A DNA stretch of 64,000 bases from Argopecten irradians (taxonomy: Eukaryota): assembly GCF_041381155.1 (NCBI RefSeq), contig NC_091134.1, forward strand, positions 61,118,902 through 61,182,901. The letters are read 5' to 3'. Positions 2,344 to 41,019 of the stretch are shown here, one piece after another. The translations under genes and the position numbers were made by a program. Position 1 is the stretch's first letter. Each line of letters opens with the position of its first letter. The notes under the pieces were generated by a model. The model ran no database searches. It was not told where the DNA came from and saw nothing but the letters and a program-made list of their open reading frames with translations.

Positions 2344-3310
2344 TTAGCTCACCTGGCCCGAAGGGCCGGTGAGCTTATGTCATGGCGCGGCGTCCGTCGT
2401 CCGTCCGTCCGTCCGTCCGTCAACATTTCCTTTAAATCGCTACTAGTCATAGAGTTCTGAATGGAATGTAACCAAATTTGGCCACAAACATCCTTGGGGG
2501 AAGGGGAACAGAACTTGTATAAATTTTGGCTCTGGTCCCCCGGGGGCAGGAGGGGCGGGGCCCAATAGGGGTAATAGAGGTAGATCCTTTAAATCGCTAC
2601 TAGTCATAGAGTTCTGAATGGAATGTAACCAAATTTGGCCACAAACATCCTTGGGGGAGGGGGAACAGACCTTGTATAAATTTTGGCTCTGACCCCCCGG
2701 GGGCAGGAGGGGCAGGGCCCAATAGGGGTAATAGAGGTAAATCCTTTAAATCGCTACTTGTCATAGAGCTCTGAATGGAATGTAACCAAATTTGGCCACA
2801 AACATCCTTTGGGGAAGGGGAACAGAAATTGTATAAATTTTGGCTCTGGTCCCCCAGGGGCAGGAGGGGCGGGGCCCAATAGGGGAAATAGAGGTAAATC
2901 CTTTAAATCGCTACTAGTCATAGAGTTCTGAATGGAATGTAACCAAATTTGGCCACAGACATTCTTTGGGGAAGGGGAACAGAACTTGTATAAATTTTGG
3001 CTCTGACCCCTGGGGGCAGGAGGGGCGGGGCCCAATAGGGGAAATAGAGGTAAATTCTTTAAATCGCTACTAGTCATAGAGTTCTGATGGATTGTAACCA
3101 AATTTGGCCATAAACATCCTTGGAAGAAGGGGAACAGAACTTGTATAAATTTTGGCTCTGACCCCCTGGGGGCGGGAGGGGTGGGGCCCAATAGGGGATT
3201 TAGAGGTTAATATCAAAATTCCTTCAGAAAAGAAACAATGAACCTGTATTCAGAACATTACTTGGCATTACAAACCAGGTGAGTGATACAGGCCCTCTGG
3301 GCCTCTTGTT
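2344..3310 (+). mobile_element. Rolling-circle-like (Helitron/Helentron-type, non-autonomous) element copy 1. It has a hairpin head, a (GTCC)n spacer, 5 monomers of a 157-bp satellite (family A) and a conserved ~105-bp tail ending GGCCCTCTGGGCCTCTTGTT. It lies in CHMP1 intron 2.
   Basis: The head TTAGCTCACCTGGCCCGAAGGGCCGGTGAGCTTATG is a 14-bp-stem hairpin with a GAA loop. It recurs at 20636 and 25948. The tail recurs at 27906-28019 and 44815-44913. There are no long TIRs and no obvious target site duplication. Confidence 0.55.
2429..3210 (+). repeat. Satellite family A: 157-bp monomer, 5 copies.
   Basis: The anchor CCTTTAAATCGCTAC recurs at 2429, 2586, 2743, 2900 and ~3055. Confidence 0.9.
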
Positions 3311-3581
3311 AGAGTAAAGCAAGGATATCACAATAGATATTTACAAGCAAGGAAAAATAATCAAAGGGTCTCCTAGTAGTCTGTTACATTCTCCATGTGA
3401 GTTAATTTCCCATCCTTATTATTTGCTGTGTACAAAGTGTTCACTAAAATGATATTATTTAATATATGTAGCAGTAACACAAATACTGCTGATGAGATAT
3501 ACTGGATTGTTATAATCCAGCCAATGATAAATGACATAATTTAATTCTGTTTGAAGTATATATTTTATGTTGTATTTACAG

Positions 3582-3650
3582 GTTACAGGGTCTATGGCTG
3601 GAGTGGTGAAGTCTATGGAATCAGCAATGAAGAGTATGAATCTGGAAAAG
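3582..3650 (+). CDS. CHMP1: CHMP1 exon: VTGSMAGVVKSMESAMKSMNLEK.
   Basis: Acceptor tttacag|GTT and donor AAG|gtaact. It matches CHMP1B VTKSMAGVVKSMDATLKTMNLEK. Confidence 0.85.
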
Positions 3651-3758
3651 GTAACTGTTCTATGGAAACTTTAAAAACAATGTGGGCAGTATTTGATAAA
3701 AATATTAAAAATTGCAATAATTAATAAATAATTAATGGCAATCCTTACCTTATTTTAG

Positions 3759-3910
3759 ATCTCCCAGTTGATGGACAGATTTGAGCAACAGTTTGAGAAC
3801 CTTGATGTACAGTCACAGGTAATGGAAGACACAATGAACGCATCCTCCACTCTCAACACACCACAGACCCAGGTCGAGGGACTAATGCAGGAGGTGGCCG
3901 ACGAGGCAGG
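3759..3910 (+). CDS. CHMP1: CHMP1 exon ending in phase 2: ISQLMDRFEQQFENLDVQSQVMEDTMNASSTLNTPQTQVEGLMQEVADEA(G).
   Basis: Acceptor ttttag|ATC and donor GG|gtaggt. It matches CHMP1B ISALMDKFEHQFETLDVQTQQMEDTMSSTTTLTTPQNQVDMLLQEMADEAG. Confidence 0.85.
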
Positions 3911-4304
3911 GTAGGTTTCTCAACTTATGGTTCTCATTGATTAAAGAAAGAAATTCCAATACCTGGCCAACCAGTTAAGGATACAAGATGAATAACTTTG
4001 TAAATATTTCTAATAACTAGTCAACCAAATAGCTTTCCGGTCATTTCAATTAAATTTTAAACACAAAAAGATTTGATGTCAGTCTGTCGCAAAACATTGA
4101 TTGAAAAAAAAAAATGTATTAAGGGTCTCCATTCACGGTCTTGTGGTTAGTAGGGATGAAGATGATATAGTTACTACATGAAAGTCCATCAATATTTTAA
4201 TACATATATCACTAAAATATTACTTATTTTCATGACTAGTAGAAAATCATGGTAATTGTGTTAACAGATTCTGTTTTAACATTCAATGACATTTTCCCTT
4301 CCAG

Positions 4305-4386
4305 TCTTGAATTAAATATGGACCTCCCCACAGCACAGTCTACTTTACCCTCTGGGGTAGCCTCAGCATCAGCTAACAGTGAACAG
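4305..4386 (+). CDS. CHMP1: CHMP1 exon starting in phase 2: (G)LELNMDLPTAQSTLPSGVASASANSEQ.
   Basis: Acceptor ccttccag|T completes the GGT codon. The donor is CAG|gtatgt. It matches CHMP1B GLDLNMELPQGQTGSVGTSVASAEQ. Confidence 0.8.
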
Positions 4387-4689
4387 GTATGTGTGTGATA
4401 GACCCTTTGGACAACAATTGGTTATCATAGATGTTTTATGTTATGGTGTGGTGTCTGCCATCCATGTAGATTTCCTCTGTACATTTTATTCTAGACATAA
4501 AGTACAGAATGTGATAGAGGGAATCCATAGATTGGATAGAATTGGATAAAAGTTTAATTTGCACAGTCCTAATGTATAAGTATTTTATGTCACACCATTA
4601 AATGGCATCTATGTAACTTTACCCTTTTCTTGCCTTGTCCTGAAACATCCCATCCCCTCTTTTCTCGCACCTCGGACAGGGAAATCTCA

Positions 4690-5060
4690 CATGATACCTG
4701 GTGCTAGATTTTTCTATCTCGTCCGATCTGTCTGGTACCTTTACGCGAATTTGGCGGAATTTTACGCCATTCATGTAACAGTCCGCGCATGTGACGTCAA
4801 ACTCTCGAACTGGTGACGTCACAAGCGTCAGATAATCAATATTATTAGAAATATGTGCATTCAGTCATTTACCATGCATTGTTTGTTTGTTGTTTTTAAT
4901 TATGAAAACAGTATGTACCGATAGATCATCGTTTTTCTTTGATATAACCGAACTATATAGTTTTATGCGGAATAACTGAAATCGAAGCGCAGATGAAATG
5001 CTTTGAACCAGGAGGCCCAAGACGGGATAGTTTTACACTCTGAACGCGTATATAGACGGG
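4690..5060 (+). promoter_or_regulatory. CpG-rich block with two perfect CRE palindromes TGACGTCA (4792-4799 and 4814-4821, 14 bp apart) and a TATATAG at 5049-5055. It is a candidate intronic promoter.
   Basis: Dense CpGs (cgcgaa, ccgcgc, gacgtc, aacgcg, ggcgcgag) in an otherwise AT-rich, CpG-poor intron. Two full CREB/ATF sites and a TATA-like motif ~55 bp upstream of a large hairpin. Confidence 0.3.
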
Positions 5061-5110
5061 TTTTGCTATATCTTAGAGGCGCGAGAAAAAAAATCTATTA
5101 CCTTTAATTG

Positions 5111-5232
5111 ATCAAGATCGGGTTATCTCAGTCTCGGGCTAAGATTTTGTAACATCCCAACCTCGGCTAATGCCTCGGTTGGGATTATGTTACAAAATCT
5201 TAGCCCTCGACTGAGATAACCCGATCTCGATC
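5111..5232. repeat. 122-bp near-perfect hairpin (inverted repeat, ~58-bp arms, 4-nt loop) in CHMP1 intron 5. MITE-like or hairpin-RNA-like.
   Basis: The left arm gatcaagatcgggttatctcagtctcgggctaagattttgtaacatcccaacctcggc is complementary to the right arm gcctcggttgggattatgttacaaaatcttagccctcgactgagataacccgatctcgatc. Confidence 0.8.
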
Positions 5233-5464
5233 ACTTACAGGTAACAGATTTTATTAGTCTTGTCAAGTTTGTATATGAAGGAGAGGGCATTTATGTATCA
5301 CTGTAACTGATGTATCACTGTAATTTCCAGTTTTGTAAAGAGTTAACAAAAAAATATACATAATCAATGTTGTTATTCAATACATGTTGTAACAAAACAC
5401 ACAGAAATTATCATATAAACATAGTTTTATTGGACAACTTACTAAATATTTTTCTTTTCTTCAG

Positions 5465-5503
5465 GATGAACTTACGCAGCGACTGGCAAAGTTACGGAAT
5501 TGA
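5465..5503 (+). CDS. CHMP1: CHMP1 terminal coding exon DELTQRLAKLRN followed by a TGA stop at 5501-5503.
   Basis: Acceptor ttcttcag|GAT. It matches the CHMP1B C-terminus DELSQRLARLRDQV, the MIT-interacting motif helix. Confidence 0.85.
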   Translation, partial: DELTQRLAKLRN

Positions 5504-5688
5504 TACACATATCAACTTCATTGTGATAGAAAATTGTTAATCTTGACATTTTAACTGTCGCCTTAGCTTTGAGTAGAAAAGTTTTCCTGTGAAAGAGGAA
5601 CCAGAAAATCGATGACTGCCTTCATCTTGTTTATGTACAGCTGTCCCAGACTAAAACTTTATTGTGATGATGGATTCATATCGTGTAA

Positions 5689-5694
5689 AATAAA
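5689..5694 (+). terminator. CHMP1: Candidate AATAAA polyadenylation signal for CHMP1, ~190 nt downstream of the stop.
   Basis: An AATAAA hexamer in the 3' flank. There is no transcript evidence. Confidence 0.3.
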
Positions 5695-8209
5695 CTGACA
5701 CATGCAATATTGTCAGTCAAGGGAATGCTGAGGAGGATGTGGTACTCAATACTGTGAGAAAGATACTTGAAAAGGTGGAGATAATTGTTTTAAACACACA
5801 TTATGAATAATGCCCAAATTTTATATCCGATACTAGTTCTAGGCTATTCCTCATGTTTATATACTGTAGGAAACCAATGTAACATATTATTTCTTCATAC
5901 TTGCTGTATTTGTGAGTTATTTAAGTATTATGTGAGAGATGGGTATGTAGCTAGTGAATGAGAATCACACCTCTAACAATATTTTATTCATTTCATTCTT
6001 TTGTTGCATGTGGGTACTACTTTCAAGGTATCACCAATAATGTTCATACTCTATATGGTGATATTGAACCCACCAGTGAGCAATGATCAAAGGGAGGGAA
6101 CTTAAACCTTATACAATTTTTCTTTTTTTTTCTTCATGTACAGTTTTATGATGATAAGTTTATTTCTGTCCTAATCAATGTATCTGGGCATTTTGACAGT
6201 TAGATGTATACAAAATAAATCTACATCAATAATATTGAAGGATTGATTGTCAATTTTGTTACATTCATTGACTGATAAAGAAAGTTAATCTCATGCAAAT
6301 GAAGTGAACTGTGAATTAAGTTGGATAGGAATGGGTAAAAAACTGTCAGTAATATACAACTCTCTTGGTTTTATATAAATAATTCTTAATTAATTAGAGA
6401 AACATAATGTTTTCCTTTTACACCACGATTTTATAAAAAGAAAAATTCCACAAAACTGCTGTACAATACAAGACTTTATCCTCTTTTGTCAAGCATTTTG
6501 GATCATTTGTTGAAGTGTTCAACAACCTCTATAAAAACTTGTTTCCCTGACATTTCAGGATAAACAATGTTTTCCTTCTTTGATATTGTTATAAACTTGT
6601 TTTCACGTTCATACATACCTCAGTGTATGTAGTAAATTATGTATTATGAATTAATGAAATCGTTAAATAAATCTTGATACAAAATTACAAGGTTGTTGAA
6701 GTTTAACTCACAATTTATACTATACTATAGTGTATCCTGTGTTTCTGCAGTCAGTATGATTGATCTATTTAGGTAAAATAACGTAGATATTCACTCTGAC
6801 TTTTGACCTCAAGATTTAGGTCATCTGATCCAACGGGCCAGTATGACATTAGGCCTATTGTCATCATGCTTATTTTGTCGTTGTCTGCCATTTGCCATCC
6901 TTAAATATTTTTGCGTTTAAACTTTTGGCATTTAGTGAAACTTATCTAAGATGATCCTGACATGGTCCTAACCAAGTTTGTTTATGTTTTGGGTTGATCC
7001 GAAATACAAGATGGATACCATACTTCTTTAGTCCTTCTGCTGCAATTTAGCCAAAAACTTTATGGTAACAATCCTGACATAGTCCCAAGGTATTTCGGAT
7101 TGATGTGAAATCCAAAGGCTGCCACAGTTGTAAAATTTCAAAAATGTAATGGAAGCATCGATGATAGCTTACGCTTGTGCAAGATAAAACCTAGCAAAAG
7201 TTCGAAATTATTACATAATGAAATCACGAAGATGAAATTAAAGAAGACGCTTGCACCCGTGAGTTGAGACTTGATTTTTTTCCCATGTTGACTGGCCCGC
7301 TCATGGTACATTTTCATATTCCATTCAATTGATGTGGGTCAGTTTCATAGACATGAGTAAGGCCCAGCTAAATTACGATCAGTCTAGGGCCTATATATTT
7401 TGCGTTTTCCTAATGCGCTTTGTCGCCCTTTTGTTCCCCACCATAGAGGGTGTCGTCCACGCACTTCCTTTTGGAAAAACAGGAAACGTCATCCCTTTAC
7501 GCCTAGCAGTGAGAATGGTCCTAAACAGGTCCACTGTCTTTTAAAATGTTTTCTTTTTGGAGTAAATATCTCCATAATCTTTTTTAACCAGCACGTTGCA
7601 CTAGGCCAATTGGTTGCGTCCTTTCTTCCATGTTTGACACATGAGTGTCCATAAACTCCTTATAACAGATTGGGCACTTTTGTAAACCTTGTAAAAGAAA
7701 CCCACTGATGCAGACTTCAACTTCTTTCCGTTTTCAGTCATGGACATCCACCTGGTCCATTATGTGGTACTCCTTGAAGTTCATCCGTCGTCAGAATGGA
7801 TATTCCTGTACTTTTGTCTTCGTTTTGAAACTTTGAAGACATTTCAATCTGTCGGCTGCGAACATGTTCTTGATGTATTGAAATATTGCATCGTCCTTCA
7901 CAACGATCAATATTTCTCATACTTTCTTCTAAGTTCCTTTCCCGAGTCTTTCTGTATTTCTCTGGCGACACTCGAGATTATTCCTGAGCTGTCTCTCTGA
8001 AGGTTATTCTTGAACTACTGTAATCCTTTTTCTTGAATGTCCTTCCCATGTTTGTCAGCTTCTTCGTAGTTGCAATCCGGCACATTCTCCTGTTCAGTGA
8101 CGTGGCTCGTGGATTTATATACCAAATTCCATCTGCTAACATCAATTTACGTTCTTTCTATGGAGCTCCACAGACAATTTTGTAGGAAAACATTTACCAC
8201 TGTTTTGTC

Positions 8210-9215
8210 ATCATGCACCGTCCGTTGTCGTGCACCGTGCGCCGTGCGCCTGTAGCATTCTTGGATGAAGGGCTACCAAGTTTGTTCAAATGAATGACCT
8301 TGACCTTCATTCAAGATCACAGGGGTCAAATAGGCTAAAATCTTGTAAACAACTTCTTTTGAATATCTAAGAGGTCCAGAGACCTGATATTGGGCCCCTG
8401 ACATACTGGGATGATGGCCTATTAAGTTTGTTCAAAGCAATGGCCTTGATCTTCATTCAAGGTCACAGGGGTCAAAAAGGCTAAAATCTTCAAACAACTT
8501 CTTCTCAAGAACCAGAAGGCCCAGGGTATTGATATTGGGCCTGTAGCATGCTGGGATGAAGGGCTTCCAAGTTTGTTCAAATGAATGACCTTGACCTTCA
8601 TTTAAGGTCACAGGGGTCAAATAGGCTAAAATCCTTTAAACAACTTCTTTTCAAGAACCAGAAGGCTCAGGGTTCTCATATTGGGCCTGTAGCATGCTGG
8701 GATGAAGGGCTACCAAGTTTGTTCAAATAAATGACCTTGACCTTCATTTAAAGTCACAGGAGTCAAATAGGCTGAAATCCTTCAAACAACATCTTATGAA
8801 TAACTAAGAGGTCTAGAGACCTGATATTGGGCCCCTGACACGCTGGTATGAAGCGCTATCAAGTTTGTTCAAATCAATGACCTTGATCTTCATTCAAAAG
8901 ATTTCTTGAGAATAACTAGGAGGCCTAGAGACCTGATATTGGGCATGTGACCTGCTGGGATGAAGAGCTACCAAGTTTGTTCTAATGAATGACCTTGACC
9001 TTCATCCAAGGTCACAGGGGTCAAATAGGCTAAAATCTTGAAATTACTTTATTGGGCCTGTGACATGCTAGGATGAAGGGCTACCATATTTGTTTTAAAA
9101 AAATGACCTTGATCTTCATTCAGATCACAGGGATCAAAATGGTTAATATATTTAAATGACTATGTTGTATTGTGCCAATAGTCAGATGACCGTTAAGGCC
9201 CATGGGCCTCTTGTG
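8210..9215 (+). mobile_element. Helentron-like element copy 2 (5'-truncated: no hairpin, only a remnant of the GTCC-type spacer). It carries ~6 monomers of the 147-bp satellite family B and a tail ...GACCGTTAAGGCCCATGGGCCTCTTGTG.
   Basis: Same satellite family as 20770-25905. Its tail shares the GGCCC-N3-GGGCC palindrome and CTTGT terminus with the family A tails. Confidence 0.5.
8255..9130 (+). repeat. Satellite family B: ~147-bp monomer, ~6 copies.
   Basis: GGGCTACCAAGTTTGTTCAAATGAATGACCTTGACCTTCATTCAAGGTCACAGGGGTCAAA recurs every ~147 bp. Confidence 0.9.
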
Positions 9216-9230
9216 AAATTAGTGACAGAT

Positions 9231-9579
9231 ATGGTGATTTTATAGGTGTATTGTTTTCAGACAAAGCCTTGACAAAGTCCTCACGGGCCGGTATCAAAAT
9301 CTGCAGGTCCGTCAGGATTTCATGTTATAGCCATTTGATTCGGTTAATATAGTGTTTAAAGACCTAGACCTTTTTCGTTTATACGGTTTGAATGGTTGGA
9401 CCTATTTATTCGTTTATGAATTAACGACAGGTCTATGCCATTTCCGTTTATTCGGAACAACCGGTTCGACCGTTTGTAAAAGTCTTTATTTCAAGTATAA
9501 ATCCTGACGGACCTGTAGTTTATGATACAGGCCTGCGAGGGATTTGTCAAGGCTCGTCTGAAAACAAAATAAAATCACC
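9231..9579. mobile_element. MITE-like element (~350 bp) with ~90-bp imperfect terminal inverted repeats. A further partial copy lies in tail-to-tail arrangement at 9580-9716.
   Basis: Left TIR ggtgattttataggtgtattgttttcagacaaagccttgacaaagtcctcacgggccggtatcaaaatctgcaggtccgtcaggattt and reverse complement of 9498-9579 are ~85% identical. A third, direct TIR copy lies at 9649-9716. Confidence 0.6.
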
Positions 9580-9793
9580 AGGTCCGTCTTTATTCATAAA
9601 CGAACAACTATGTCCAACCAGTCAAACCGCATAATCGAAAACGGCCATGGTGATTTTATATCGTTTCAGACAACTAGCCTTGACAAAGCCCTCACAGGCA
9701 CGTATCAAAATCTGCAGATATATTACATTTACGAAAGGTGCAACCGTATAAACGAAACCGGGCTTACACTGGGGCAACTTCCTCGATCATATG

Positions 9794-9868
9794 TAACATT
9801 CTCAGGGCGATGTTACACTAACATTCTCAGGGCGATGTTACACTACCATTCTCAGGGCGATGTTACAT
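9794..9868. repeat. 25-bp minisatellite in 3 copies (aacattctcagggcgatgttacact).
   Basis: Direct tandem repeat. Confidence 0.85.
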
Positions 9869-10276
9869 CATATTAACTTCAACAAAAGATTCTTATTCAA
9901 TATGATACTTCAAATTAATTAATGTTTCATGAAACATCATTTCAAATTGAGATTTAGTTTGAATCAATGGAAACATCCATGTATCCGGAATACTTAAAAA
10001 GAACTGTTTAGCAGGGTGCTCTTATAGGACTTCACTTATTTTGAAGCTTTTTAGATTAGGAATTGTCATTGTCGCCAAAGCATCAGTACTATATGACTTG
10101 ATAACCATTTTATAAGGGATGGACTAATCAGGTAGCCAGAACCTTTCTGACTAAAGGTATGTATGCATGCATACCGATATATTATTCAATTTCATATTAT
10201 ATATTTAATGACATTTAATGCGAATTTCTGGTACAGGATAGAATATCCTCTACACCAGACTTAAATTCTGTACATA

Positions 10277-10278
10277 CT

Positions 10279-10308
<30 letters not shown>
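10277..10308. repeat. (TA)n microsatellite, ~16 units.
   Basis: tatatatatatatatatatatatatatatata. Confidence 0.95.
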
Positions 10309-10309
<1 letters not shown>

Positions 10310-14491: not shown

Positions 14492-17230
14492 GGTATACAT
14501 ATATGGCAAGCCGTTTTGATATTTAATACATAATAGCTTCAGTTAAAAAGTTATTTAGCTTAAGTTAAAAAGATTTCAACTTAAGTTAAAAAGATTTCAA
14601 CTTAAGTTAAAAAGAATTCAACTTAAGTTAAAAAAACTTACATAATCAAACTTTTTTTAACTTAAGTTGAAATCTTTTCAGCTTAAGCTGAAATATTTTT
14701 AACTTAAGTTAAATAACGTGATAATGCAAAATACTCTTTTTCTAACTTAAGTTGAAAAGATTGTTGCACTATGATAATGCAAAAAGAATTTGTCTTAAAG
14801 CTGACAATGCAAGTTAAAAATTATTAAAATGATTTTTTTTTTAAAACAAGTATACTCGTTGTCCAAGAATCGTTTATGAGACATTCCCCAGTTGAGGACA
14901 GCCATTTTTGTTTTACATTCCGACGACTCACCGACCCCTTTATAAAACGCGTGAATCGACACACGTGCGCTCATTTGTGTACCCATACGCCTAGCAGTCC
15001 ACAGTATATATCACCTACAAATAGGTAAACAAATCCCTCACCTGTAAAACTATATGGGACTTTTGTTAGCAAGAAAACATGTCAACTCCTCTAAGCTGTC
15101 ATTTAGATGTTTCTCAAAATAAAATTCCAACGCAAGTGAATAGAAATCCAAACAATAATCCGTCCACATATCTCCACGTATATCATTGTACTCGATGCAC
15201 TCAACTGACCATGTACACGTGACTACGTACCTGACCCGGGCGAGCGACAACTATCAAGGACACACATGTGTCGATGTACATGTACGTGTAAAACTTGGTG
15301 TATATTGAAGTGTTTTATTAGTTCGTATTGGACATATGTTGGGATATAGCTGACAACACATTCATCTATTACATCAATGAAATATTGTCAGGTGAGTGCA
15401 GTGTTTATTTTCAATTTGACATTGTTATTTGCAATATCGGGGCATGTGTATCTGAGACAAGACATGTTTAGAATGACACACGTGTGTCAAGTGTCCCGTG
15501 CTTTATATAGGGGGTTGGCCAGTGAAGGTTACTAAGAAGAGCAAAAGAAAAATGGCTGCCACTTCCTTAGATACCACACTGTCATAACTAGGGGATGTCT
15601 CAGAAACAATTTTTGAAAAAAATATTTCGCTAATATATTTTTTTTTTAATTTCAAATGCATGTTTTTAACTTGCATTGTCAGCTTTAAGTTAGATTTCTC
15701 ATTTTTGCTTTAACACTTATTTTAACTTAAGTGTAAAAATATATCGATCGCACTTCCATCGAAATTGTGATCATGCAAAAAAGGTAAAGTCAACCGTAAA
15801 TCGCCTTTGGACTAGTCCAATATACTCATCCAATGAAAACACTCCATACATAACATCCAATCACATTACAGTTGCTGTTTCGAAACTGCTTTGCGTGCAA
15901 TGACAACTGCGTAACAAAATGGCAGCCCTCGCCCTCAATATTTATATGCTGAGTACCCATTGCACGTTGCATTTTTCTGTTAATTGTTAAGTAAAATATT
16001 TATTTAGCACATTCTCCTGTTGCTCATCTAAAAAATTGCATTTGTTAAAAAGTCAAATTAGACCAGCTACAATTAATCACAACCAAGCTGAAAAGTTTTT
16101 TTAACTTAATAAGCTGAAAAGTTTTCTTTTTACTTAAGTAGTAAAGTTTTTTTAACTTAAGTAGAAAAGTTTTTTTTATTTAAGCTGAAAAGTTTTTTCA
16201 ACTTAAGTAGAAAAGTTTTTTTAACTTAAGCTGAAAAGTTTTTTCAACTTAAGTAGAAAAGTTTTTTTAACTTCAGTAGAAATTTTTTTAACTTCAGTAG
16301 AAATTTTTTTTAACTTAAGCTGAAAAGTTTTTTTAACTTTAGTAGAAAAGTTTTTAACTTAAGCTGAAAAGTTTTTTTTAACTTAAGCTGAAAAGTTTTT
16401 TTAACTTAAGTAGAAAAGTTTTTTAACGTAAGCTGAAAAGTTTTTTCAACTTAAGAAGAAAAGTTTTTTTAACTTAAGCTGAAAAGTTTTTTTTAACTTC
16501 AGCTGAAAAGTTTTTTTAACTTAAGTAAAAAAGTTTTTTTAACTTAAGTAGAAAAGGTTTTTTTAACTTAAGCTGAAAAGTTTTTTTTAACTTAAGCTGA
16601 AAAGTTTTTTTTACTTAAGTAGAAAAGTTTATATATATACCAGGTTTTTTTAACGAAAAATTATTCGTAAGGCATTATTCAAATCCAGCACCTTTATTTT
16701 CTTACTAGCAAAGTGGCTATCTTGAAAAATAATGGAAGGCGCCATATTTACAATGTCTTCTAGACGGAAAACATATCTTGTTGGGGTTACCTTGAAGTAG
16801 TTGATTTGATACCATTCAAATATTAATCTGAATTGCTGATAGCACGTCGTCGGCCATTTTGTTTTATGCAATATGGCTGTTCAAGCTTGTCGGGAACACG
16901 TACAAATGGACTAGCCTAACCCATTATAAATATAAGGGGATGTCAGGTAGAATATTGGAAATATGATTTACTTATCTACAACCAGATTTTTTTAGCTTAA
17001 GTTGAATAAGGTTTATTTGCATTGTCACTTTTTTCAGTTTAAGTCAAAAAGATTTCAACTTAAGTCAAAAAGATTTTTTTTGACTTAAGTGAAAAAAAGT
17101 GATAATGCAAAAAAACTTTTTTTAACTTAAGTTGAAATCTTTTTAGCTTAAACTAAAATCTTTTTAACTTAAGCTAAATAACTTTTTAACTTAAGCTATT
17201 ATGTATTAAATATCAAAACGGCTTGCCATA
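14492..17230. mobile_element. ~2.74-kb non-autonomous DNA-transposon-like element with long (~230 bp) terminal inverted repeats. The TIRs are themselves built from a 22-bp AACTTAAGYTGAAAAG(T)n minisatellite. An internal 16080-16640 array of the same minisatellite is present.
   Basis: Left end tatggcaagccgttttgatatttaatacataatagctt... is matched by the reverse complement of the right end ...aagctattatgtattaaatatcaaaacggcttgccata. The match extends through the minisatellite blocks. No transposase ORF is visible. Target site duplication is unresolved. Confidence 0.6.
16080..16640. repeat. 22-bp minisatellite (aacttaagctgaaaagtttttt), ~25 copies, internal to the long-TIR element.
   Basis: Direct tandem repeat. 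The same unit in opposite orientation lies at 14530-14760 and 16990-17190. Confidence 0.85.
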
Positions 17231-17787: not shown

Positions 17788-18738
17788 TAGTCCGCTAAAC
17801 CTGCCTATATTATTAGGCTCTTTTTTTTTTATTATTTTTTTTTTTTTTTTTGCCTAATATATAGTCAGCTCGCGGTACCTCTTAAAAATGTGAAATCGTA
17901 GGCCAGATTTGGCCTACGCTACGTCAGCGGCATATTTCTAATATATCGTCCATGCAATGCCGGGAAAACGTACACATACCTTTATATTGGGATCTTATGT
18001 ACTCCTTTGCCCCCATGTTACATCCCATTTATGAAATTAAACAACTGTGTACAATGAAATACTTCCAAGACCCTTCTATTTCACACATTTGTAATGGCCG
18101 CCGTATACACATTTAGTAGAGCAAACGGCAGCCAATCAACTTCGCTTCCGGTTTTATTTTTAAATATCCACGTGTAGTTGAAAGATAAACAAAATTCTAC
18201 CGTGTATATGCTACATGTATATGCAACGTGAATATCGCGAAAGTTATGCGGTGCCAGCAATAGTCGTGTTCAATTTGAATATTTGACAACATGCCGTGTA
18301 TGTCGACCATGATTTTACTTTAAAAACTCTAACTGGCTAGCATTTTGTTTATCTTTCAACTACACGTGGTTTTTTAAAAATAAAACCGGAAGCGAAGTTG
18401 ATTGGCTGCCGTTTGCTCTACTAAATGTGTATACGGCGGCCATTACAAATGTGTGAAATAGAAGGGTCTTGGAAGTATTTCATTGTACACAGTTGTTTAA
18501 TTTCATAAATGGGATGTAACATGGGGGCAAAGGAGTACATAAGATCCCAATATAAAGGTATGTGTACGTTTTCCCGGCATTGCATGGACGATATATTAGA
18601 AATATGCCGCTGACGTAGCGTAGGCCAAATCTGGCCTACGATTTCACATTTTTAAGAGATACCGCGAGCTGACTATATATTAGGCAAAAAATTTTTTTAA
18701 AAAAAAGCCTAATAATATAGGCAGGTTTAGCGGACTAC
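17788..18738. mobile_element. hAT-like foldback / long-TIR non-autonomous element (~950 bp). It has ~415-bp arms at >95% identity and a ~140-bp central loop, flanked by 8-bp direct repeats GTTAAACC.
   Basis: Left arm 17788-~18204 is matched by the reverse complement of ~18344-18738. The termini are TAGTCCGC...GCGGACTA. GTTAAACC is at 17780-17787 and 18739-18746. Confidence 0.6.
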
Positions 18739-19772: not shown

Positions 19773-19971
19773 AGTACCCATGTTATCTGCAATGACCCCG
19801 CTAAAGCAGATATTAGCTACAAATGTAAAATGGCCCAGAAGTATGGCATTCCAGTTGTATCTGTCAACTTCTTGTATGACTGTGTGGAGAAAGGGAGACT
19901 ACTCAGTACCGATGACTACCTGGTTATCGGCAAAACAAAGTCTCAGAAACTCAAATCCGGTAGAATTGCAG
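19773..19971 (+). CDS. PARP4: PARP4 exon 2 (rest of the BRCT domain), ending in phase 1: STHVICNDPAKADISYKCKMAQKYGIPVVSVNFLYDCVEKGRLLSTDDYLVIGKTKSQKLKSGRIA.
   Basis: Acceptor tcctatag|AGT and donor CAG|gtaaat. It aligns to human THIILDNADVLSQYQLNSIQKNHVHIANPDFIWKSIREKRLLDVKNY. The overlapping ORF-track frame (19756..) is a different, non-homologous frame. Confidence 0.8.
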
Positions 19972-20134
19972 GTAAATAATCATTAATCATTGTTTTATTT
20001 TGATATTGCAAATTCATGATAACGTACCTTTTAAAATTGTGTTAAAAGTGGTTGTGTAATTAGCAACATCCCCCCCTCCTGCTTGCGCAATTTTCCATGT
20101 TAAGGTAAACTTGATTTGGATGATTTTTTTTTAG

Positions 20135-20274
20135 CTACAAAGTATCAGATTCTTGGTAAAAGGAAAAAGTCCTCCTTCTATCCTGGGGGAGCTAAAGCTT
20201 GGCCGCTACACGAAAAACACACCCCAACATTCAATCATACTAAGTACCAAGTGGCAAAATATGCCTTACTTAAG
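20135..20274 (+). CDS. PARP4: PARP4 exon 3: (A)TKYQILGKRKKSSFYPGGAKAWPLHEKHTPTFNHTKYQVAKYALLK.
   Basis: Acceptor ttttttag|CT and donor AAG|gtaagt. The phase is consistent. YQVAKYALLK matches human FEVAKYNTLEK. Confidence 0.7.
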
Positions 20275-20769
20275 GTAAGTGTACAAAAATCACAATATAC
20301 GGCAAAGAGATATCATGATAGATAAAAAATAAAATCATGATGAAAAAAAATTAATGATAAACTTGACGTATCAAAAAGTAACATAATCTGATAATAAATC
20401 AGAGTTAATTTATGATATTATACATTCAGAATGTTAATGAAGCAAATTAATGTATCCAGCTAAAATATTTCAAAAATATTTTTAATCACCCCAAGGATTG
20501 GATGTAATACCTACTAAAATGCTCTACATTTACATTTGGATCAAGTAAGTAATTATGTTTATGTGAAGTCAAACTCTGGTTTGGGCTTGGCATATTGCAT
20601 TAGAAATTATTGCTAAGAAATTGTACTGATATTATTAGCTCACCTGCCCGAAGGGCAAGTGAGCTTATGCTATGGTGCAGCGTCCAGCGTCTGTCCGTCG
20701 TCCGGCCGTCCGTCCGTCTGTCCGGCCGTCCGGCGACAACTTTTCCATTTAAACAATTTCTTCTCCAAA

Positions 20770-23700
20770 ACTTGGAGACCTAGAGTCCTGAAATTTGACT
20801 TATAGCATGCTGGGATCAAGGGCTACCAATTTTGTTCGAATGAATGACCTCGACCTTCCTTCAAGGTCACAGGGGTCAAATAGGCTGAAATATCTTGTTA
20901 AGACTTCTGCTTCATAACCAAGAGGCCTAGAGACCTGATACTTGGCATGTAACATGTTGGGATGAAGGGCTACCAAGCTTGTTTCATTCAAGGTCACGGG
21001 GGTCAAATAGGCTAAAATCTTTAAACAACTTCTTCTTAATAACCAAGAGACCTAGGGACCTGATATCAGGCCTGTGACATGCTGGGATCAAGGGCTACCA
21101 AGTTTGTTCAAATGAATGACCTTGACCTTCATTCAAGGTCACAGGGGTCAAAAAGGCTAAAATCTTTAAACGACTTCTTCTTAATAACCAAGAGGCCTAG
21201 GGACCTGATATTAGGCCTGAGGCATGCTGGGATCAAGGGCTACCAAGTTTGTTCAAATGAATGACCTTGACCATCATTCAAGGTCACAGGGGTCAAAAAA
21301 GGCTAAAATCTTTTAAAGATTTCTTCTTAATAACCAAAGAGCCTAGGAACCTGATATTAGGCCTGTGACATACTTGGATCAAGGGCTACCAAGTTTGTTC
21401 AAATGAATGACCTTGACCCTCATTCAAGGTCACAGGGGTCAAAAAGGCTTAAATCTTTAAACGACTTCTTCTTAATAACCAAGAGGCCTAGGGACCTGAT
21501 ATCAGGCCTGTGACATGCTGGGATCAAGGGCTACCAAGTTTTGTTCAAATGAATGACCTTGACCTTCATTCAAGGTCACAGGGTAAAAAAGGCTAAAATC
21601 TTTAAAGGACTTCTTCTTTATAACCAAGAGGCCTAGGGACCTGATATTGGGCCTGAGGCATGCTGGGATCAAGGGCTAACAAGTTTGTTCAAATGAATGA
21701 CCTTGATCTTCATTCAAAGTCACAGGGGTCAAAAAGGCTTAAATCTTTAAACGACTTCTTCTTAATAACCAAGAGGCCTAGGGACCTGATATCAGGCCTG
21801 TGACATGCTGGGATCAAGGGCTACCAACTTTGTTCAAATGAATGACCTTGACCTTCATTCAAGGTCACAGGGGTAAAAAAGGCTAAAATCTCTAAACGAT
21901 TCTTCTTAATAACCAAGAGGCCTAGGGACCTGATATTGGGCCTGAGGCATGCTGGGATCAAGGGCTACCAAGTTTGTTCAAATGAATGACCTTGATCTTC
22001 ATTCAAAGTCACAGGGGTCAAAAAGGTTAAAATCTTTAAACGACTTCTTCTTAATAACCAAGAGGCCTAGGGACCTGATATTAGGCCTGTGACATGCTGG
22101 GATCAAGGGCTACCAAGTTTGTTCAAATGAATGACCTTGACCATCATTCAAGGTCACAGGGGTCAAAAAAGGCTAAAATCTTTTAAAGATTTCTTCTAAA
22201 TAACCAAAGAGCCTAGGAACCTGATATTAGGCCTGTGACATACTTGGATCAAGGGCTACCAAGTTTGTTCAAATGAATGACCTTGACCCTCATTCAAGGT
22301 CACAGGGGTCAAAAAGGCTTAAATCTTTAAACGACTTCTTCTTAATAACCAAGAGGCCTAGGGACCTGATATCAGGCCTGTGACATGCTGGGATCAAGGG
22401 CTACCAAGTTTTGTTCAAATGAATGACCTTGACCTTCATTCAAGGTCACAGGGTAAAAAAGGCTAAAATCTTTAAAGGACTTCTTCTTTATAACCAAGAG
22501 GCCTAGGGACCTGATATTGGGCCTGAGGCATGCTGGGATCAAGGGCTAACAGGGGTCAAAAAGGTTAAAATCTTTAAACGACTTCTTCTTAATAACCAAG
22601 AGGCCTAAAGACCTGATATTAGGCCTGTGACATGCTGGGATCAAGGGCTACCAAGTTTGTTCAAATGAATGACCTTGACCTTCATTCAAGGTCACAGGGG
22701 TCAAAAATGCTAAAATCGTTAAACAATTTCTTTTTAATAACCAAAGAGACTAGGAACCTGATATTAAGCCTTTGACATACTGGGATCAAGCTACAAAGTT
22801 TGTGCAAATGAATGACCTTGACCTTCATTCAAGGTCACAGGGGTCAAAAAGGCTAAAATCTTTAAATGACTTCTTCTTAATAACCAAGAGGCCTAGGGAC
22901 CTGATATCAGGCCTGTGACATGCTGGGATCAAGGGCTACCAAGTTTGTTCAAATGAATGACCTTGACCTTCATTCAAGGTCACAGGGGTCAAAAAGGCTA
23001 AAATCTTTAAACGATTTCTTCTTAATAACCAAAGAGCCTAGGAACCTGATATTAAGCCTGTGACATACTGGGATCAAGGGCTACAAAGTTTGTTCAAATG
23101 AATGACCTTGACCTTCATTCAAGGTCACAGGGGTCAAAAAGGCTAAAATCTTTAAATGACTTCTTCTTTATAACCAAGAAGCCTAGGGACCTGATATTGG
23201 GCATGTGACATGCTGGGATCAAGGGCTACCAAGTTTGTTCAAATGAATGACCTTGACCTTCATTCAAGGTCACAGGGGTCAAAAAGTCTAAAATCTTTAA
23301 ACGACTTCTTCTTAATAACCAAGAGGCCTAGGGACCTGATATTGGGCCTGAGGCATGCTGGGATAAAGGGCTACCAAGTTTGTTCAAATGAATGACCTTG
23401 ATCTGCATTCAAGGCTAAAATCTTTAAACAGTTTCTTCTTAATAACCAGACAGCCTAGGGACCTGGTATTGGGCCTGTGGCATGATGAAATCAAGGGCTA
23501 CCAAGTTTGTTCAAATGAATGACCTTGATCTTCATTCAAGGTTACAGGGATAAAAAAAGGCTTAAATCTTTAAACGACTTCTTCTTAATAACAAAACAGC
23601 CTAGGGACCTGATATTAAGCCTGTGACATACTGGGATCAAGGGCTACAAAGTTTGTTCAAATGAATGACCTTGACCTTCATTCAAGGTCACAGGGGTCAA

Positions 23701-25905
23701 AAAGGCTAAAATCTTTAAATGACTTCTTCTTTATAACCAAGAGGCCTAGGGTCCTGATATTGGGCATGTGACATGCTGGGATCAAGGGCTACCAAGTTTG
23801 TTCAAATGAATGACCTTGACCTTCATAAAGGACTTCTTCTTTATAACCAAGAGGCCTAGGGACCTGATATTGGGCCTGAGGCATGCTGGGATCAAGGGCT
23901 ACCAAGTTTGTTCAAATGAATGACCTTGATCTTCATTCAAAGTCACGGGGGTCAAAAAGGCTTAAATCTTTAAACGACTTCTTCTTAATAACCAAGAGGC
24001 CTAGGGACCTGATATCAGGCCTGTGACATGCTGGGATCAAGGGCTACCAACTTTGTTCAAATGAATGACCTTGACCTTCATTCAAGGTCACAGGGGTAAA
24101 AAAGGCTAAAATCTCTAAACGATTCTTCTTAATAACCAAGAGGCCTAGGGACCTGATATTGGGCCTGAGGCATGCTGGGATCAAGGGCTACCAAGTTTGT
24201 TCAAATGAATGACCTTGATCTTCATTCAAAGTCACAGGGGTCAAAAAGGTTAAAATCTTTAAACGACTTCTTCTTAATAACCAAGAGGCCTAAAGACCTG
24301 ATATTAGGCCTGTGACATGCTGGGATCAAGGGCTACCACGTTTGTTCAAATGAATGACCTTGACCTTCATTCAAGGTCACAGGGGTCAAAAAGGCTAAAA
24401 TCGTTAAACAATTTCTTTTTAATAACCAAAGAGACTAGGAACCTGATATTAAGCCTTTGACATACTGGGATCAAGCTACAAAGTTTGTGCAAATGAATGA
24501 CCTTGACCTTCATTCAAGGTCTCATGGGTCAAAAAGGCTAAAAGTCTTTAAATGACTTCTTCTTAATAACCAAGAGGCCTAGGGACCTGATATCAGGCCT
24601 GTGACATGCTGGGATCAAGGGCTACCAAGTTTGTTCAAATGAATGACCTTGACCTTCATTCAAGGTCACAGGGGTCAAAAAGGCTAAAATCTTTAAATGA
24701 CTTCTTCTTTATAACCAAGAGGCCTAGGGACCTGATATTGGGCATGTGACATGCTGGGATCAAGGGCTACCAAGTTTGTTCAAATGAATGACCTTGACCT
24801 TCATAATGACCTTGACCTTCATTCAAGGTCACAGGGGTCAAAAAGTCTAAAATCTTTAAACGACTTCTTCTTAATAACCAAGAGGCCTAGGGACCTGATA
24901 TTGGGCCTGAGGCATGCTGGGATCAAGGGCTACCAAGTTTGTTCAAATGAATGACCTTGATCTTCATTCAAGGTCACAGGGGTATAAAAGGCTAAAATCT
25001 TTAAACAGTTTCTTCTTAATAACCAGACAGCCTAGGGACCTGGTATTGGGCCTGTGGCATGATGAAATCAAGGGCTACCAAGTTTGTTCAAATGAATGAC
25101 CTTGATCTTCATTCAAGGTTACAGGGATAAAAAAAGGCTTAAATCTTTAAACGACTTCTTCTTAATAACAAAACAGCCTAGGGACTTGATATTGGGCCTG
25201 TGGCATGCTGGGATTAAGGGCTACCAAATTTGTTCAAATGAATGACCTTGACCATCATTCAAGGTCATAGGGGTCAAAAAGGCTAAAATCCTTTAAACGA
25301 CTTCTTCTTAATAATCAAGAGGCCTAGGGACCTGATATTGGGCTTGTGGCATGCTGGAATCAAGGGCTACCAAGTTTGTTCAAATGAATGACCTTGATCT
25401 TCATTCAAGGTCACAGGGATCAAAAAGGCTAGAATCTTTAAACGTCTTCTTCCTAATAACCAAACAGCCTAGGGACCTGGTATTGGGCATGTGGCATGCT
25501 GGGATCAAGGGCTACCACGTTTGTGCAAATGAATGACCTTGACCTTCATTCAAGGTTACAGGGGTCAAAAAGGCTAAAATCTTTAAAAGACTTCTTTATA
25601 CCAAAACAGTCTTGGGACCTGATATTGGGCCTATGGCATGCTGGGATCAAGGGCTACCAAGTTTGTTCGAATGAATGACCTTGACATCATTCAAGGTCAA
25701 AGGGGTAAGATAGGCTAAAATCTTTAAACAACTTCTTAATAACCAAGAGGTCTTGAGACCTGTTATTGGGCATGTGACATGTTGGGATGAAGCGCTACAA
25801 AGTTTGTTCAAATGAATGACCTTGACTTTCATTCAAGGTCACAGGGGTCAAATAGGCTAAAATCTTTAAATGACTCCTTTTTAATAACCAAGAGGCAAAG
25901 AGGCC
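20770..25905 (+). repeat. Satellite family B: ~147-bp monomer, ~35 copies, with local deletions (~22540, ~23400, ~23820) and a small duplication (~24790).
   Basis: Same monomer as 8255-9130. The ORFs MLGSRATKFVQMNDLDL... in the ORF track are repeat artefacts. Confidence 0.9.
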
Positions 25906-25947
25906 TCTAATATGCTTAGGGATGATATACATTCTCGTTTATTCTTT

Positions 25948-28019
25948 TTAGCTCACCTGGCCCGAAGGGCCGGTGAGCTTATGTCATGGCGCGGCGTCCG
26001 TCGTCCGTACGTTGTCCATCCGTCATCCGTCTGTCAACATTTCTTTAAATCGCTACTAGTCATAGAGTTCTGCATGGATTGTAACCAAATTTGGCCACAA
26101 GCATCCTTGGGGGAGGGGGAACAGAACTTGTATAAATTTTGGCTCTGACCCCCCGGGGGCAGGAGGGGAGGGGCCCAATAGGGGAAATAGAGGTAAATTC
26201 TTTAAATCGCTACTTGTCCTAGAGTTCTGCATGGATTGTAACCAAAATTAGCCATAAACATATCTTTGGGGGAAGGGGAACAGAACTTGTATAAATTTTG
26301 GCTCTGATCCCCCAGGGGCAGGAGGGAGGGGGCCCAATAGGGGAAATAAAGGTAAATCCTTTAAATCGCTACTGGTCATAGAGTACTGAATGGAATGTAA
26401 CCAAATTTGGCCACAAACATCCTTGGGGGAAGGGGAACAGAACTTGTATAAATTTTGGCTCTGGCCCCCCGGAGGCTGGAGGGATGGGGCCCAATAGGGG
26501 AAATAGAGGTAAATCCTTTAAATCGCTACTAGTCATAGAGTTCTGCATGGAATGTAACCAAATTTGGCCAGAAATATCCTTTGGAGATTAGAACTGAGTT
26601 TGTATAAATTTTGGCACTGGTCCCGGGGCGCAGGAGGGGCGGGGCCCAATAGGGGAATTATAGGTAAATCCTATAAATCGGTACTTGTCCTATAGTTCTG
26701 CATGGATTATCACCAAATTTGTCCACAAACATCCTTGGGGGTAGGAGAACAGAACTTGTATAAATTTTGGCTCTGACCCTCCGGCGACAGGAGGGGGAGG
26801 AGCCCAATAGAGGAAATAGTGGTAAATCCTTTAAATCGCTACTTGTCCTAGACTTCTGCATGGATTGTAACCAAATTTGGCAACAAACATCCTTGGGGGA
26901 AGGGGAACAGAACTTGTATAAATTTTGGCTCTGACCCCCCGGGGGCAGGAGGGGCGGGGCCCAATAGGGGAAATAGAGGTAAATTCTTTAAATCGCTACT
27001 TGTCCTAGAGTTCTGCATGGATTGTAACCAAAATTAGCCACAAACATCCTTGGGGGAGGGGGAACAGAACTTGTATAAATTTTGGCTCTGACTCCCCAGG
27101 CAGGAGGGGCGGGGCCCAATAGGGGAAATAGAGGTAAATTGTTTAAATTGCTACTTGTCCTAAAGTTCTGCATGGATTGTAACCAAAATTAGCCATAAAC
27201 ATATCCTTGGGGGATGGGGAACAGAAGTTGTATAAATTTTGGCTCTGATCCCCCAGGGGCAGGAGGGGCGGGGCCCAATAGGGGAAATAAAGGTAAATCC
27301 TTTAAATCGCTACTGGCCATAGAGTTCTGAATGGAATGTAACCAAATTTGGCCACAAACATCCTTGGGGGAAGGGGAACAGAACTTGTGTAAATTTTGGC
27401 TCTGGCCCCCCGGAGGCTGGAGGGGTGGGGCCCAGTAGGGGAAATAGAGGTAAATCCTTTAAATCGCTACTAGTCATAGAGTTCTGCATGGAATGTAACC
27501 AAATTTGGCCAGAAATATCCTTGGGAGATTAGAACTGAGTTTGTATAAATTTTGGCACTGGTCCGGGGGCGCAGGAGGGGCGGGGCCCAATAGGGGAATT
27601 ATAGGTAAATCCTATAAATCGGTACTTGTCCTAGAGTTCTGCATGGATTGTAACCAAATTTGGCCATAAACATCCTTGGGGGTAGGAGAACAAAACTTGT
27701 ATAAATTTTGGCTCTGACCCTCCGGGGACAGGAGGGGGTGGAGCCCAATAGAGGAAATAGTGGTAAATTCTATAAATCGCTACTTGTCCTAGAGTTTTGC
27801 TTGGATTGTGACCAAATTTGGCCATAAACATCCTTGTGGGAAGGAGAACAGAACTTTGGCTCTGACCCCCTGGGGACAGGAGGGGTGGGGCGCAATAGGG
27901 GACTTAGATGATAATATTAAAATTCCTTCAGAAAAGAAACAATGAACCTGTATTCAGAACATTACTTGGCATTACAAACCAGGTGAGCGATACAGGCCCT
28001 CTTGGCCTCTTGTTGTTAA
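25948..28019 (+). mobile_element. Helentron-like element copy 4: hairpin head, (GTCC)n spacer, ~12 monomers of satellite family A and the conserved tail ending GGCCCTCTTGGCCTCTTGTT.
   Basis: The head at 25948-26040 is near-identical to 2344-2428. Array is 26041-27905. Tail 27906-28019 is near-identical to 3205-3310. Confidence 0.55.
26041..27905 (+). repeat. Satellite family A: 157-bp monomer, ~12 copies.
   Basis: Same monomer as 2429-3210. The minus-strand PAPRG-rich ORFs are artefacts. Confidence 0.9.
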
Positions 28020-28283
28020 GTATGAACCATGTATGATTACCAGATTGCAATTGAGCGATTCGGGCCCATTGGGCCCTTGTTATAGTTTTGTCAAATGTCA
28101 TTTGTTTCCGTTTGGTTCAAAATAAAGAAGCTTTTGTATGGACAGGTATTCTGGGTGCAAGAAAACATTGAACATAGTGTTTATACATATGAATATTTAG
28201 GAAGATCTTTGGCTTAAAAAGAGTAATGTAATATGCTAACATATTTTTTCAATTGTCATAGCTTATTTATTTTTTTCTTCAAG

Positions 28284-36968: not shown

Positions 36969-36970
36969 TA

Positions 36971-40943: not shown

Positions 40944-41019
40944 GTAGGTCCGGGGCTGGGAGTGTCTTTGTCTGTAATTATGGCTTCCATTCCATGGCTG
41001 ATAGGGAGGCCTATCTTAA

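Follow-up and report, generated by a model that had tools for sequence, protein, structure and literature searches.

Helentrons are the endonuclease-encoding branch of the Helitron rolling-circle transposons. Their non-autonomous, non-coding derivatives, the HINEs, have already been described in oysters, clams, mussels and flies, and here we analyze elements of this known kind in a 64,000-nucleotide stretch of Argopecten irradians DNA (contig NC_091134.1, positions 61,118,902 to 61,182,901; hereafter the window). The loci in question are very probably HINE copies, with two families (HINE-A and HINE-B) that probably form one diverged lineage and a third (HINE-C) that is independent; they may well be catalogued already for the source species. 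They offer a compact example of Helentron-derived elements that would give rise to satellite-like arrays and disperse them where genes are dense, and three families, a 5-kb array grown in place from an element, and an element nested within an element are on display within 45 kb.

The definition of a HINE was laid down for DINE-1 and for mite and mosquito elements (Thomas et al. 2014, PMC4067079). [quoted passage not shown] In contrast, the sequences and hosts are unrelated, and DINE-1 and the mite HINEs share >95% identical ends with a known autonomous Helentron (PMC4067079), whereas none is known here.

In the Pacific oyster (Crassostrea gigas), the accessible part of the published account describes eleven Cg_HINE families, several of them with GTCY, GTCC or GTCK microsatellites and 140–180-bp repeats (Vojvoda Zeljko et al. 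2020, PMC7492417). Within that part, the architecture agrees with ours: a 5′ subTIR of 11–12 nt, an IR 1–12 nt away, a GTCY/GTCC/GTCK microsatellite, a variable spacer, 140–180-bp repeats in fixed orientation, and then a 3′ subTIR and a palindrome, with T-rich or TT sites, no target-site duplication (TSD; in the window, none above 1 nt), and intronic and truncated copies. It also states that a given repeat cluster always occurs with its own pair of flanks; group 2 families have related flanks with different repeats, and in group 1 (Cg_HINE_4) flanks and repeats have diverged together. Satellite dispersal of this type in bivalves, which a reading made from the sequence alone had cited, is already in print, and so, to judge from the same part, is the situation in which related flanks surround different repeats (Cg_HINE group 2). 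Two differences emerge from it: the longest array reported there has 29 monomers as against 36 in a B array here, and a HINE nested in a HINE, as seen here, is not described there. The A and B motifs were absent from 52 C. gigas satellite DNA consensuses and the Cg_HINE supplements, a comparison that lies outside the flank consensuses, apart from a chance occurrence of AACCAAATTTGG in CgiSat44; a full-text literature search for the head sequence gave 0 matches.

The pearl elements of Crassostrea virginica (CvA, CvE and CvG), MgE of Mytilus galloprovincialis and DTC84 of Donax trunculus (PMC3879986) share with the window elements the order of flank, microsatellite, core repeats and flank. They hold one to six core repeats of ~160 bp, and their flanks serve as a repeat ‘cassette’. 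DTC84 and CvG have an ACGG microsatellite, of which the CCGT/GTCC tract in the window is the reverse complement, and an AA/TT dinucleotide at the ends is common to all of them. [quoted passage not shown] Two aspects of the window go slightly past the accessible parts of the published accounts: the probable joint divergence of flanks and repeats of two ‘different’ satellites from one ancestor, and covariation in hairpin stems among genomes, an indication that selection acts on the structure of single-stranded DNA (ssDNA), as expected for rolling-circle transposition. Both leave the known picture unchanged.

The HINE-A and HINE-B copies have the following parts.

2345–3309, plus strand: HINE-A copy 1, full length, with head, microsatellite, array and tail.
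Left module of HINE-A copy 1: 5′ subTIR TAGCTCACCTGG at 2345–2356, head hairpin at 2346–2375, microsatellite at 2391–2421.
2430–3211: array of HINE-A copy 1, 5 monomers of 157 bp.
3212–3309: right flank of HINE-A copy 1, with 3′ subTIR CCAGGTGAGTGA at 3275–3286, palindrome at 3290–3304 and terminus CTTGT at 3305–3309.
25949–28013, plus strand: HINE-A copy 2, full length, which sits inside a HINE-B copy’s right flank.
Left module of HINE-A copy 2: hairpin at 25950–25979, degenerate microsatellite at ~25995–26035.
26043–27902: array of HINE-A copy 2, 12 monomers.
Tail of HINE-A copy 2: 3′ subTIR CCAGGTGAGCGA at 27979–27990, palindrome at 27994–28008, terminus CTTGT at 28009–28013.
44011–44912, plus strand: HINE-A copy 3, 5′-truncated inside a monomer, in an intron of a PARP4-like gene.
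44011–44814: array of HINE-A copy 3, 5.1 monomers.
44815–44912: right flank of HINE-A copy 3, with 3′ subTIR CCAGATGAGTGA at 44878–44889, palindrome at 44893–44907 (1 mismatch) and terminus CTTGT at 44908–44912.
8211–9214, plus strand: HINE-B copy, 5′-truncated, hairpin missing, with a degenerate microsatellite at 8218–8247.
8248–9146: array of this truncated HINE-B copy, ~6.5 monomers of 146 bp.
9147–9214: right flank of the truncated HINE-B copy, with a degraded subTIR, palindrome AGGCCCatGGGCCT at 9196–9209 and terminus CTTGT at 9210–9214.
20636–28080, plus strand: HINE-B copy, full length, split by the nested HINE-A.
Left module of the full-length HINE-B copy: head TAGCTCACCTG at 20636–20646, hairpin to ~20665, microsatellite at 20688–20732.
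20748–25896: array of the full-length HINE-B copy, ~36 monomers of 145 bp, with 289/434-bp higher-order periods.
25897–25948 and 28014–28080: right flank of the full-length HINE-B copy in two pieces, with palindrome GGGCCCattGGGCCC at 28062–28076 and terminus CTTGT at 28076–28080.

The heads define the left boundary of these units. A 36-nt stretch of the A head is repeated exactly at 2344–2379 and 25948–25983 (chance expectation 0), the heads of HINE-A copies 1 and 2 agree at 60/60 nt, and the B head at 20635–20669 is a diverged copy of the A head, with 50 matches among the first 60 nt. Each of the four full-length heads, of which three come from the window and one from an outside contig (L001), starts T|TAGCTCACC after a T-rich flank. 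A (CGTC/GTCC)n tract follows every head, in keeping with the sequence-only reading, which had placed heads with a (GTCC)n microsatellite at what we locate as 2345, 20636 and 25949. Modelled as ssDNA, the A and B heads form two-tier hairpins with z scores of −7.1 and −5.7 against shuffles, and the C head forms a hairpin with a z score of −4.8. A 14-bp stem had been reported for this hairpin; the hairpin exists, but its stem has 13 bp with a 1-nt bulge in A and 12 bp with a 1×1 internal loop in B. The periods given earlier, 157 bp for A and 147 bp for B, were right for A, and that of B is 145–146 bp.

At the right boundary, the A and B tails of the window end at 3309, 9214, 28013, 28080 and 44912, each with a palindrome and then CTTGT, and they align over their last ~37 nt: a subterminal CCAGGTGAG(C/T)GATAC, a palindrome with a 5–6-bp stem, and CTCTTGT. 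With HINE-C included, all six window tails have a stem of 5–6 bp and a loop of 2–5 nt followed by CTTGT, one of them with a stem mismatch. These tails had been said to share GGGCCC-N3-GGGCCC and CTCTTGT; a palindrome and CTTGT are indeed found everywhere, but that exact palindrome occurs only at 28062–28076, the others being AGGCCC-N2/3-GGGCCT or having one mismatch. Similarly, the short inverted pair previously noticed in head and tail (CTCACCTGG / CCAGGTGAG) is found in both full HINE-A copies but is degraded in the window’s B tails (CAATTGAG, CAGATGAC). The 5′ subTIR of A, TAGCTCACCTGG, is complementary at 10–11/12 positions to the 3′ subTIR (CCAGGTGAGCGA/TGA); the same first 11–12 nt are complementary both to an inverted copy a few nucleotides downstream, within the head hairpin, and to the 3′ site. 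A palindrome with CTTGT at 5611–5630 (GATGActgcctTCATCttgt|TT) also resembles a HINE tail; it lacks any upstream head, array or subTIR and is probably a chance occurrence.

Between these ends the elements are non-coding, as the only open reading frames (ORFs) of at least 130 aa are array read-throughs, and no homologues were found when the 145-aa read-through ORF from array A was compared with known proteins. The orientation of the arrays relative to the flanks is constant in the window and in L001, and the DNA flanking different copies is unrelated. The three HINE-A right flanks are 82–94% identical over 163 nt, copy 3 being 82% identical to copy 1. Two copies had been described as head-less. 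For the copy at 44 kb, truncated inside a monomer, this is accurate; the copy at 8210 keeps a degenerate microsatellite and lacks only the hairpin. Both truncated copies adjoin a T-run at their 5′ junction (..ctgtttTGTCA.., 8190–8215; ..aatatttGGGAAA.., 43990–44011), which could reflect insertion in an already truncated form or chance in AT-rich DNA.

The full-length HINE-B copy is interrupted. Its array (20748–25896) has no tail of its own directly after it; an A head starts 52 nt later, and the 67 nt directly after the A terminus at 28013 end in GATTCGGGCCCATTGGGCCCTTGT and align with the B right flank at 9150–9214 and with the B tails of L001. Most simply, a complete HINE-A (25949–28013) entered a T-run within the right flank of a complete HINE-B (20636–28080). 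This reading accounts for the ‘extra’ tail at 28014–28080, and the nesting is direct evidence for movement of the A element as one unit whose exact limits are its head and its tail. The B copy at 20636 had been credited with a tail; the tail exists, but it lies at 28014–28080, beyond the nested A, and the nesting itself had been missed. We also considered a double-array element like Cg_HINE_11_12 for 20636–28080, which is less likely, as the second array has its own full head and tail. The arrays grew in place after insertion, because the 5.1-kb B array has periods of two and three monomers (289/434 bp) and the A array at 26 kb contains an internal duplication of ~941 bp (6 monomers) with 96% identity.

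The same termini occur in contigs of at least two, and probably four, other organisms. We found these outside contigs by a metagenome scan with the head pattern (L001), a genome scan with the tail pattern (L002), and the exon for the VIT domain of the PARP4-like gene in the right part of the window (L004 and L005). L001 (NSIT01000556.1) holds one complete and one partial B element, with a B-type head identical to the window B head at 53/59 positions, B monomers of ~88–90% identity, and tails with an intact CCAGGTGAGCGATACAGG-palindrome-CTCTTGT. In L002 (JBEVXV010000836.1) there are three elements or fragments, whose heads read TAGCTCA(C/A)CTG...GTGAGCTATTG and which have GTCC-type tracts together with different interiors; one of the three ends in the tail CCAGGTGAGCGATACAGGGCCATCATGGCCCTCTTGT|T. 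In L004 the next intron of the orthologous gene contains a related element, in L005 the end of the locus cuts through a head at 20106, and L003 has no copy of the HINE family. The head pattern and the tail pattern each gave 0 matches in viral contigs. L002 is filed under a metagenome-assembled genome of Sedimenticola sp.; it has a spliced-gene-like structure as well as the HINE elements and is almost certainly eukaryotic host contamination of that bin.

Comparison of these sources shows which features of the ends are kept. The head hairpins of L002, L004 and L005 have z scores of −3.2 to −7.0, and the outer head stem is nearly invariant across sources. The inner head stem occurs as five sequences that always pair (GGCCC/GGGCC, TGCCC/GGGCA, TGAGC/GCTCA, TTGCC/GGCAA and GAGCC/GGCTC), and a four-sequence head alignment has both-sided changes at two stem pairs. 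The 3′ palindromes vary yet pair (AGGCCC/GGGCCT, AGGGCC/GGCCCT, GGCTCAG/CTGAGCC and TCCAC/GTGGA). This stem covariation fits ends that would act as folded single strands, a supportive rather than conclusive point. Taken together, the data directly support discrete non-coding units with fixed ends, unrelated flanks and nesting, whose ends are conserved and structurally constrained across genomes.

These features suggest how the elements may be mobilized. An element consists of a left module (an 11–12-nt 5′ subterminal repeat, an adjacent inverted copy that forms the hairpin, a (GTCC)n microsatellite and a short spacer), a central array of 145–161-bp repeats, and a right module (a 3′ subterminal repeat complementary to the 5′ one, a palindrome with a 5–6-bp stem, and a CTTGT terminus). 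From what is established for Helitron/Helentron transposition, we predict that a Rep/helicase, possibly with an endonuclease, encoded elsewhere in the genome recognises these ends and nicks at the 5′ end; one strand would be displaced from head to tail, with the 3′ palindrome marking termination, and would be integrated between two Ts without target duplication. The triple complementarity of subTIRs and IR would let the displaced strand fold into a head hairpin or, instead, into a panhandle of head and tail. A and B would belong to one lineage in which the cis-acting ends were kept similar and the interior repeats drifted to ~50% identity; the arrays would then have been lengthened locally by unequal exchange, and one A copy inserted into the B right flank.

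The part of this proposal that most invites an alternative is the common origin of A and B. The sequence-only reading had held that one module carries two unrelated satellites; by such an account, one flanking cassette repeatedly captured unrelated satellites, through filler-DNA capture or recombination, and the A and B arrays are independent, as in Cg_HINE group 2. Consistent with this, the consensus monomers of A and B have no significant local alignment (z 1.55), the right flanks of the two families are unrelated in their interior, and related flanks with unrelated repeats have a precedent in C. gigas. However, when A and B are aligned globally and in phase, z is 4.6 against 1000 dinucleotide shuffles, 0 of which reach the score, and among all 145 rotations, on either strand, this alignment scores highest, with ~50% identical columns. 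Without the 7-nt anchor, z is 3.0–3.6 for the long-array consensuses (2–14/2000 shuffles reach the score) and 4.9 for the short-array consensuses (0/2000), and reversed and reverse-complement controls give z ~0. A hidden Markov model of the A monomer matches B monomers repeatedly, in the same phase and on the plus strand only, with a best E of 0.0014.

The flanks also bear on this question. The left modules of A and B are identical at 50–54/60 nt (83–90%) and remain alignable across the microsatellite and on into AAC(A/T)TTT(C)C(A)TTTAAA; after this homologous spacer, each array starts at the same CTTTAAA phase. The 3′ ends are identical at 32–33/37 nt (86–89%) with intact B tails as the comparison. 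The A and B heads are distinct subfamily variants, one per satellite, and the B head occurs again with B repeats in the independent L001. Weak in-phase similarities connect the interior repeats of L002, L004, A and B, those of L004 having z scores of 4.1 with L002, 3.0 with B and 2.6 with A. Because of the in-phase similarity and the subfamily-specific heads, we favour diverged relatives over independent captures: with moderate confidence, A and B are probably descendants of one element whose ends were kept similar and whose interior drifted. The same observations speak against the earlier claim of unrelated satellites, and we consider repeated capture unlikely, if deserving of attention. In the terms of the accessible oyster account, the A/B situation resembles Cg_HINE group 1 (e.g. 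Cg_HINE_4) at least as much as group 2.

A second alternative is that the elements are MITEs that a DDE transposase mobilizes by cut and paste, giving a TT (AA) TSD. Inverted repeats lie near both ends, Ts stand on both flanks, and flanking AA was taken as a TSD in the DTC84 paper (PMC3879986). The layout of the ends, in contrast, is asymmetric, in that the repeat is terminal at the 5′ end but lies 23–25 nt inside the 3′ end and is followed by the palindrome, as in Helentrons (PMC4067079). T|T sites, raised earlier as something to check, are seen in part: T precedes every full-length head, and T follows 5/7 CTTGT tails, which leaves 2/7 tails without it. No copy has flanking direct repeats longer than 1 nt (one T), in agreement with the earlier statement that no target duplication is visible. 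In addition, a genuine terminal inverted repeat (TIR) element in the same window (36971–39842) has terminal TIRs and a clean TA duplication, and pearl-type elements were later reclassified as HINEs. We regard a MITE origin as very improbable, and the call of Helentron-type non-autonomous elements, made from the sequence alone, stands: every defining structural feature of HINEs is present (PMC4067079, PMC7492417).

A canonical Helitron (Helitron1) on the minus strand, with the head as its 3′ hairpin, had been suggested by the minus-strand end ...GAGCTAA, in which CTAA fits CTRR and which has a hairpin near it. The opposite end, however, is AACAAG/ACAAG instead of TC, the flanks are A...A instead of A|T, only 2 nt separate the hairpin from the end as compared with the expected ~11 nt, and subterminal inverted repeats and a second palindrome are not features of Helitron1; on the plus strand the ends are TAGC...CTTGT, which differ from the 5′ TC and 3′ CTRR of Helitron1. 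This reading has almost no probability left. Equally remote is an origin as segmental duplications or SINE-like (short interspersed element-like) retroposons, for although 2/6 copies are 5′-truncated and 3′-intact, a pattern typical of retroposons, there is no tRNA-, 7SL- or 5S-like head, no A-rich or simple-repeat 3′ tail and no flanking duplication, and the flanks of the copies are unrelated; tRNA and Rfam scans of the window gave no matches.

Several observations weigh against the HINE interpretation as we present it. Single 3′ palindromes are weakly better than shuffles (z −2.1 to −2.5), and the covariation counts come from few lineages. The homology of A and B monomers is weak, as the local alignment already indicates, and the in-phase test was prompted by the previously noticed CTTTAAA motif that they share. 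A 1–2-nt T/TT duplication looks identical to insertion between two Ts, and empty-site chimeras (150 + 150 nt) built for all six copies matched only themselves. An autonomous Helentron (Rep/helicase/endonuclease) with these termini is absent from the window among ORFs of at least 130 aa, and the accessible part of the oyster account links no autonomous partner to the Cg_HINEs even in C. gigas.

The conserved ends invite a further, tentative suggestion, which we think rather doubtful. The TAGCTCACCTG...GTGAGCT head and GGTGAGCGAYACAGG-palindrome-TCTTGT tail might be one old Helentron cis-module that has carried 145–160-bp satellites derived from one ancestral interior unit. Selection on ssDNA structure would have preserved such a module in several genomes, presumably of bivalves; the structure would comprise a two-tier 5′ hairpin, in many cases with GAA as its loop, and the 3′ hairpin. 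The interior units would have been re-phased at the same CTTTAAA junction. If true, many ‘unrelated’ dispersed bivalve satellites would be diverged paralogues from a single transposon lineage and not captures.

HINE-C, a third family that lies beyond the coordinates of the sequence-only reading, has the same architecture with other termini.

31315–32064, plus strand: HINE-C.
Left module of HINE-C: T-run at 31315–31319, 5′ subTIR GTGTCGCCTGC at 31320–31330, IR GGCGACAC at 31339–31346.
31361–31378: microsatellite-like tract of HINE-C, GC-rich, GTC-type.
31385–31972: array of HINE-C, ~3.7 repeats of 152–161 bp.
Right module of HINE-C: 3′ subTIR GCAGGCGACAC at 32031–32041, palindrome TCCACttctGTGGA at 32043–32056, terminus ATTCTTGT to 32064, then T.

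Its 5′ subTIR GTGTCGCCTGC and 3′ subTIR GCAGGCGACAC are complementary at 11/11 positions. Local and in-phase global alignment detected no significant similarity between HINE-C and A or B, with the exception of one 12-nt palindrome. By its sequence, HINE-C is an independent HINE family that has the common design and the CTTGT end and is otherwise unrelated.

A motif in the interior repeats, AACCAAATTTGG / AAC(C/T)(G/A)AAACTTGG, is present at comparable offsets across several HINE families and species. It may represent a conserved site or be left over from a shared ancestor. Sites of this motif are found as follows.

Window, HINE-A: for example 2470–2481.
Window, HINE-C: for example 31576–31587.
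L002: 3160–3175 and 5385–5400.
L004: 11620–11632 and 11772–11784.

The window in which these elements lie is AT-rich (GC 31–46% across 2-kb bins) and crowded with tandem arrays, the two array read-throughs being its only ORFs of at least 130 aa. On the plus strand, exon-like ORFs match the PARP catalytic domain (~33.0–33.2 and 34.3–34.6 kb) and the VIT domain (40.7–40.95 kb).

32998–33228 and 34334–34579, plus strand: PARP catalytic domain exons (Pfam E 1.6e-6 and 5.7e-11).
40638–41048, plus strand: VIT domain exon (Pfam E 4.7e-24).

The best protein match of the VIT exon has 83% identity over the full exon, and partial matches reach 92–94%. Because of the PARP catalytic and VIT domain matches, the right part of the window is identified as an animal gene like PARP4 (vault PARP). 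The six HINE copies all lie on the plus strand, sense relative to this gene, and at least HINE-C and HINE-A copy 3 are intronic in it. The HINE-A 3′ subTIR reads ACCAG|GTGAGT, a perfect 5′ splice-site consensus that is in sense orientation in the gene region (3275–3283, 27979–27987 and 44878–44886), and could serve as a cryptic splice donor.

Other repeats share the window with the HINEs. An array of 51-bp units (35560–36970 and 39845–40367, ~36 units in total) starts at an apparent exon end (..EKLDVFAKLMDLVAE), followed by the donor GTATGT. The unit consists of the last ~40 nt of that exon plus the donor, which means that an exon-intron junction was amplified in tandem; its 51 nt equal 17 codons. 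This array is split by the TIR element at 36971–39842, which is 2.87 kb long and non-coding and has 27-nt TIRs (CAGTACCTGAACCGTTTAACGTTCCCA), (TAACGAT)n-like subterminal repeats inside both ends, and its TA duplication at 36969–70 and 39843–44, a Tc1/mariner-like pattern. From 45692 to 64000, the end of the window, a 49-bp satellite extends for more than 18 kb, with 97% matches in its first 6 kb and more degenerate sequence past ~58 kb; it begins ~50 nt after a likely splice donor, CAG|GTGAGA (45636–45643), with no HINE-type flank at its start. In the left part of the window, a near-perfect long palindrome at 5120–5235, with arms of ~50 nt (ggttatctcagtctcgggctaagattttgtaacatcccaacc...), is foldback- or MITE-like. 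Finally, identical 76-codon frames occur on opposite strands at 17886–18113 (plus) and 18424–18651 (minus), which implies a perfect inverted duplication of at least 228 bp with its copies ~310 bp apart, and near it lie arrays of 21–23-bp units, some as inverted halves (14537–14715, 16085–16630 and 17032–17198).

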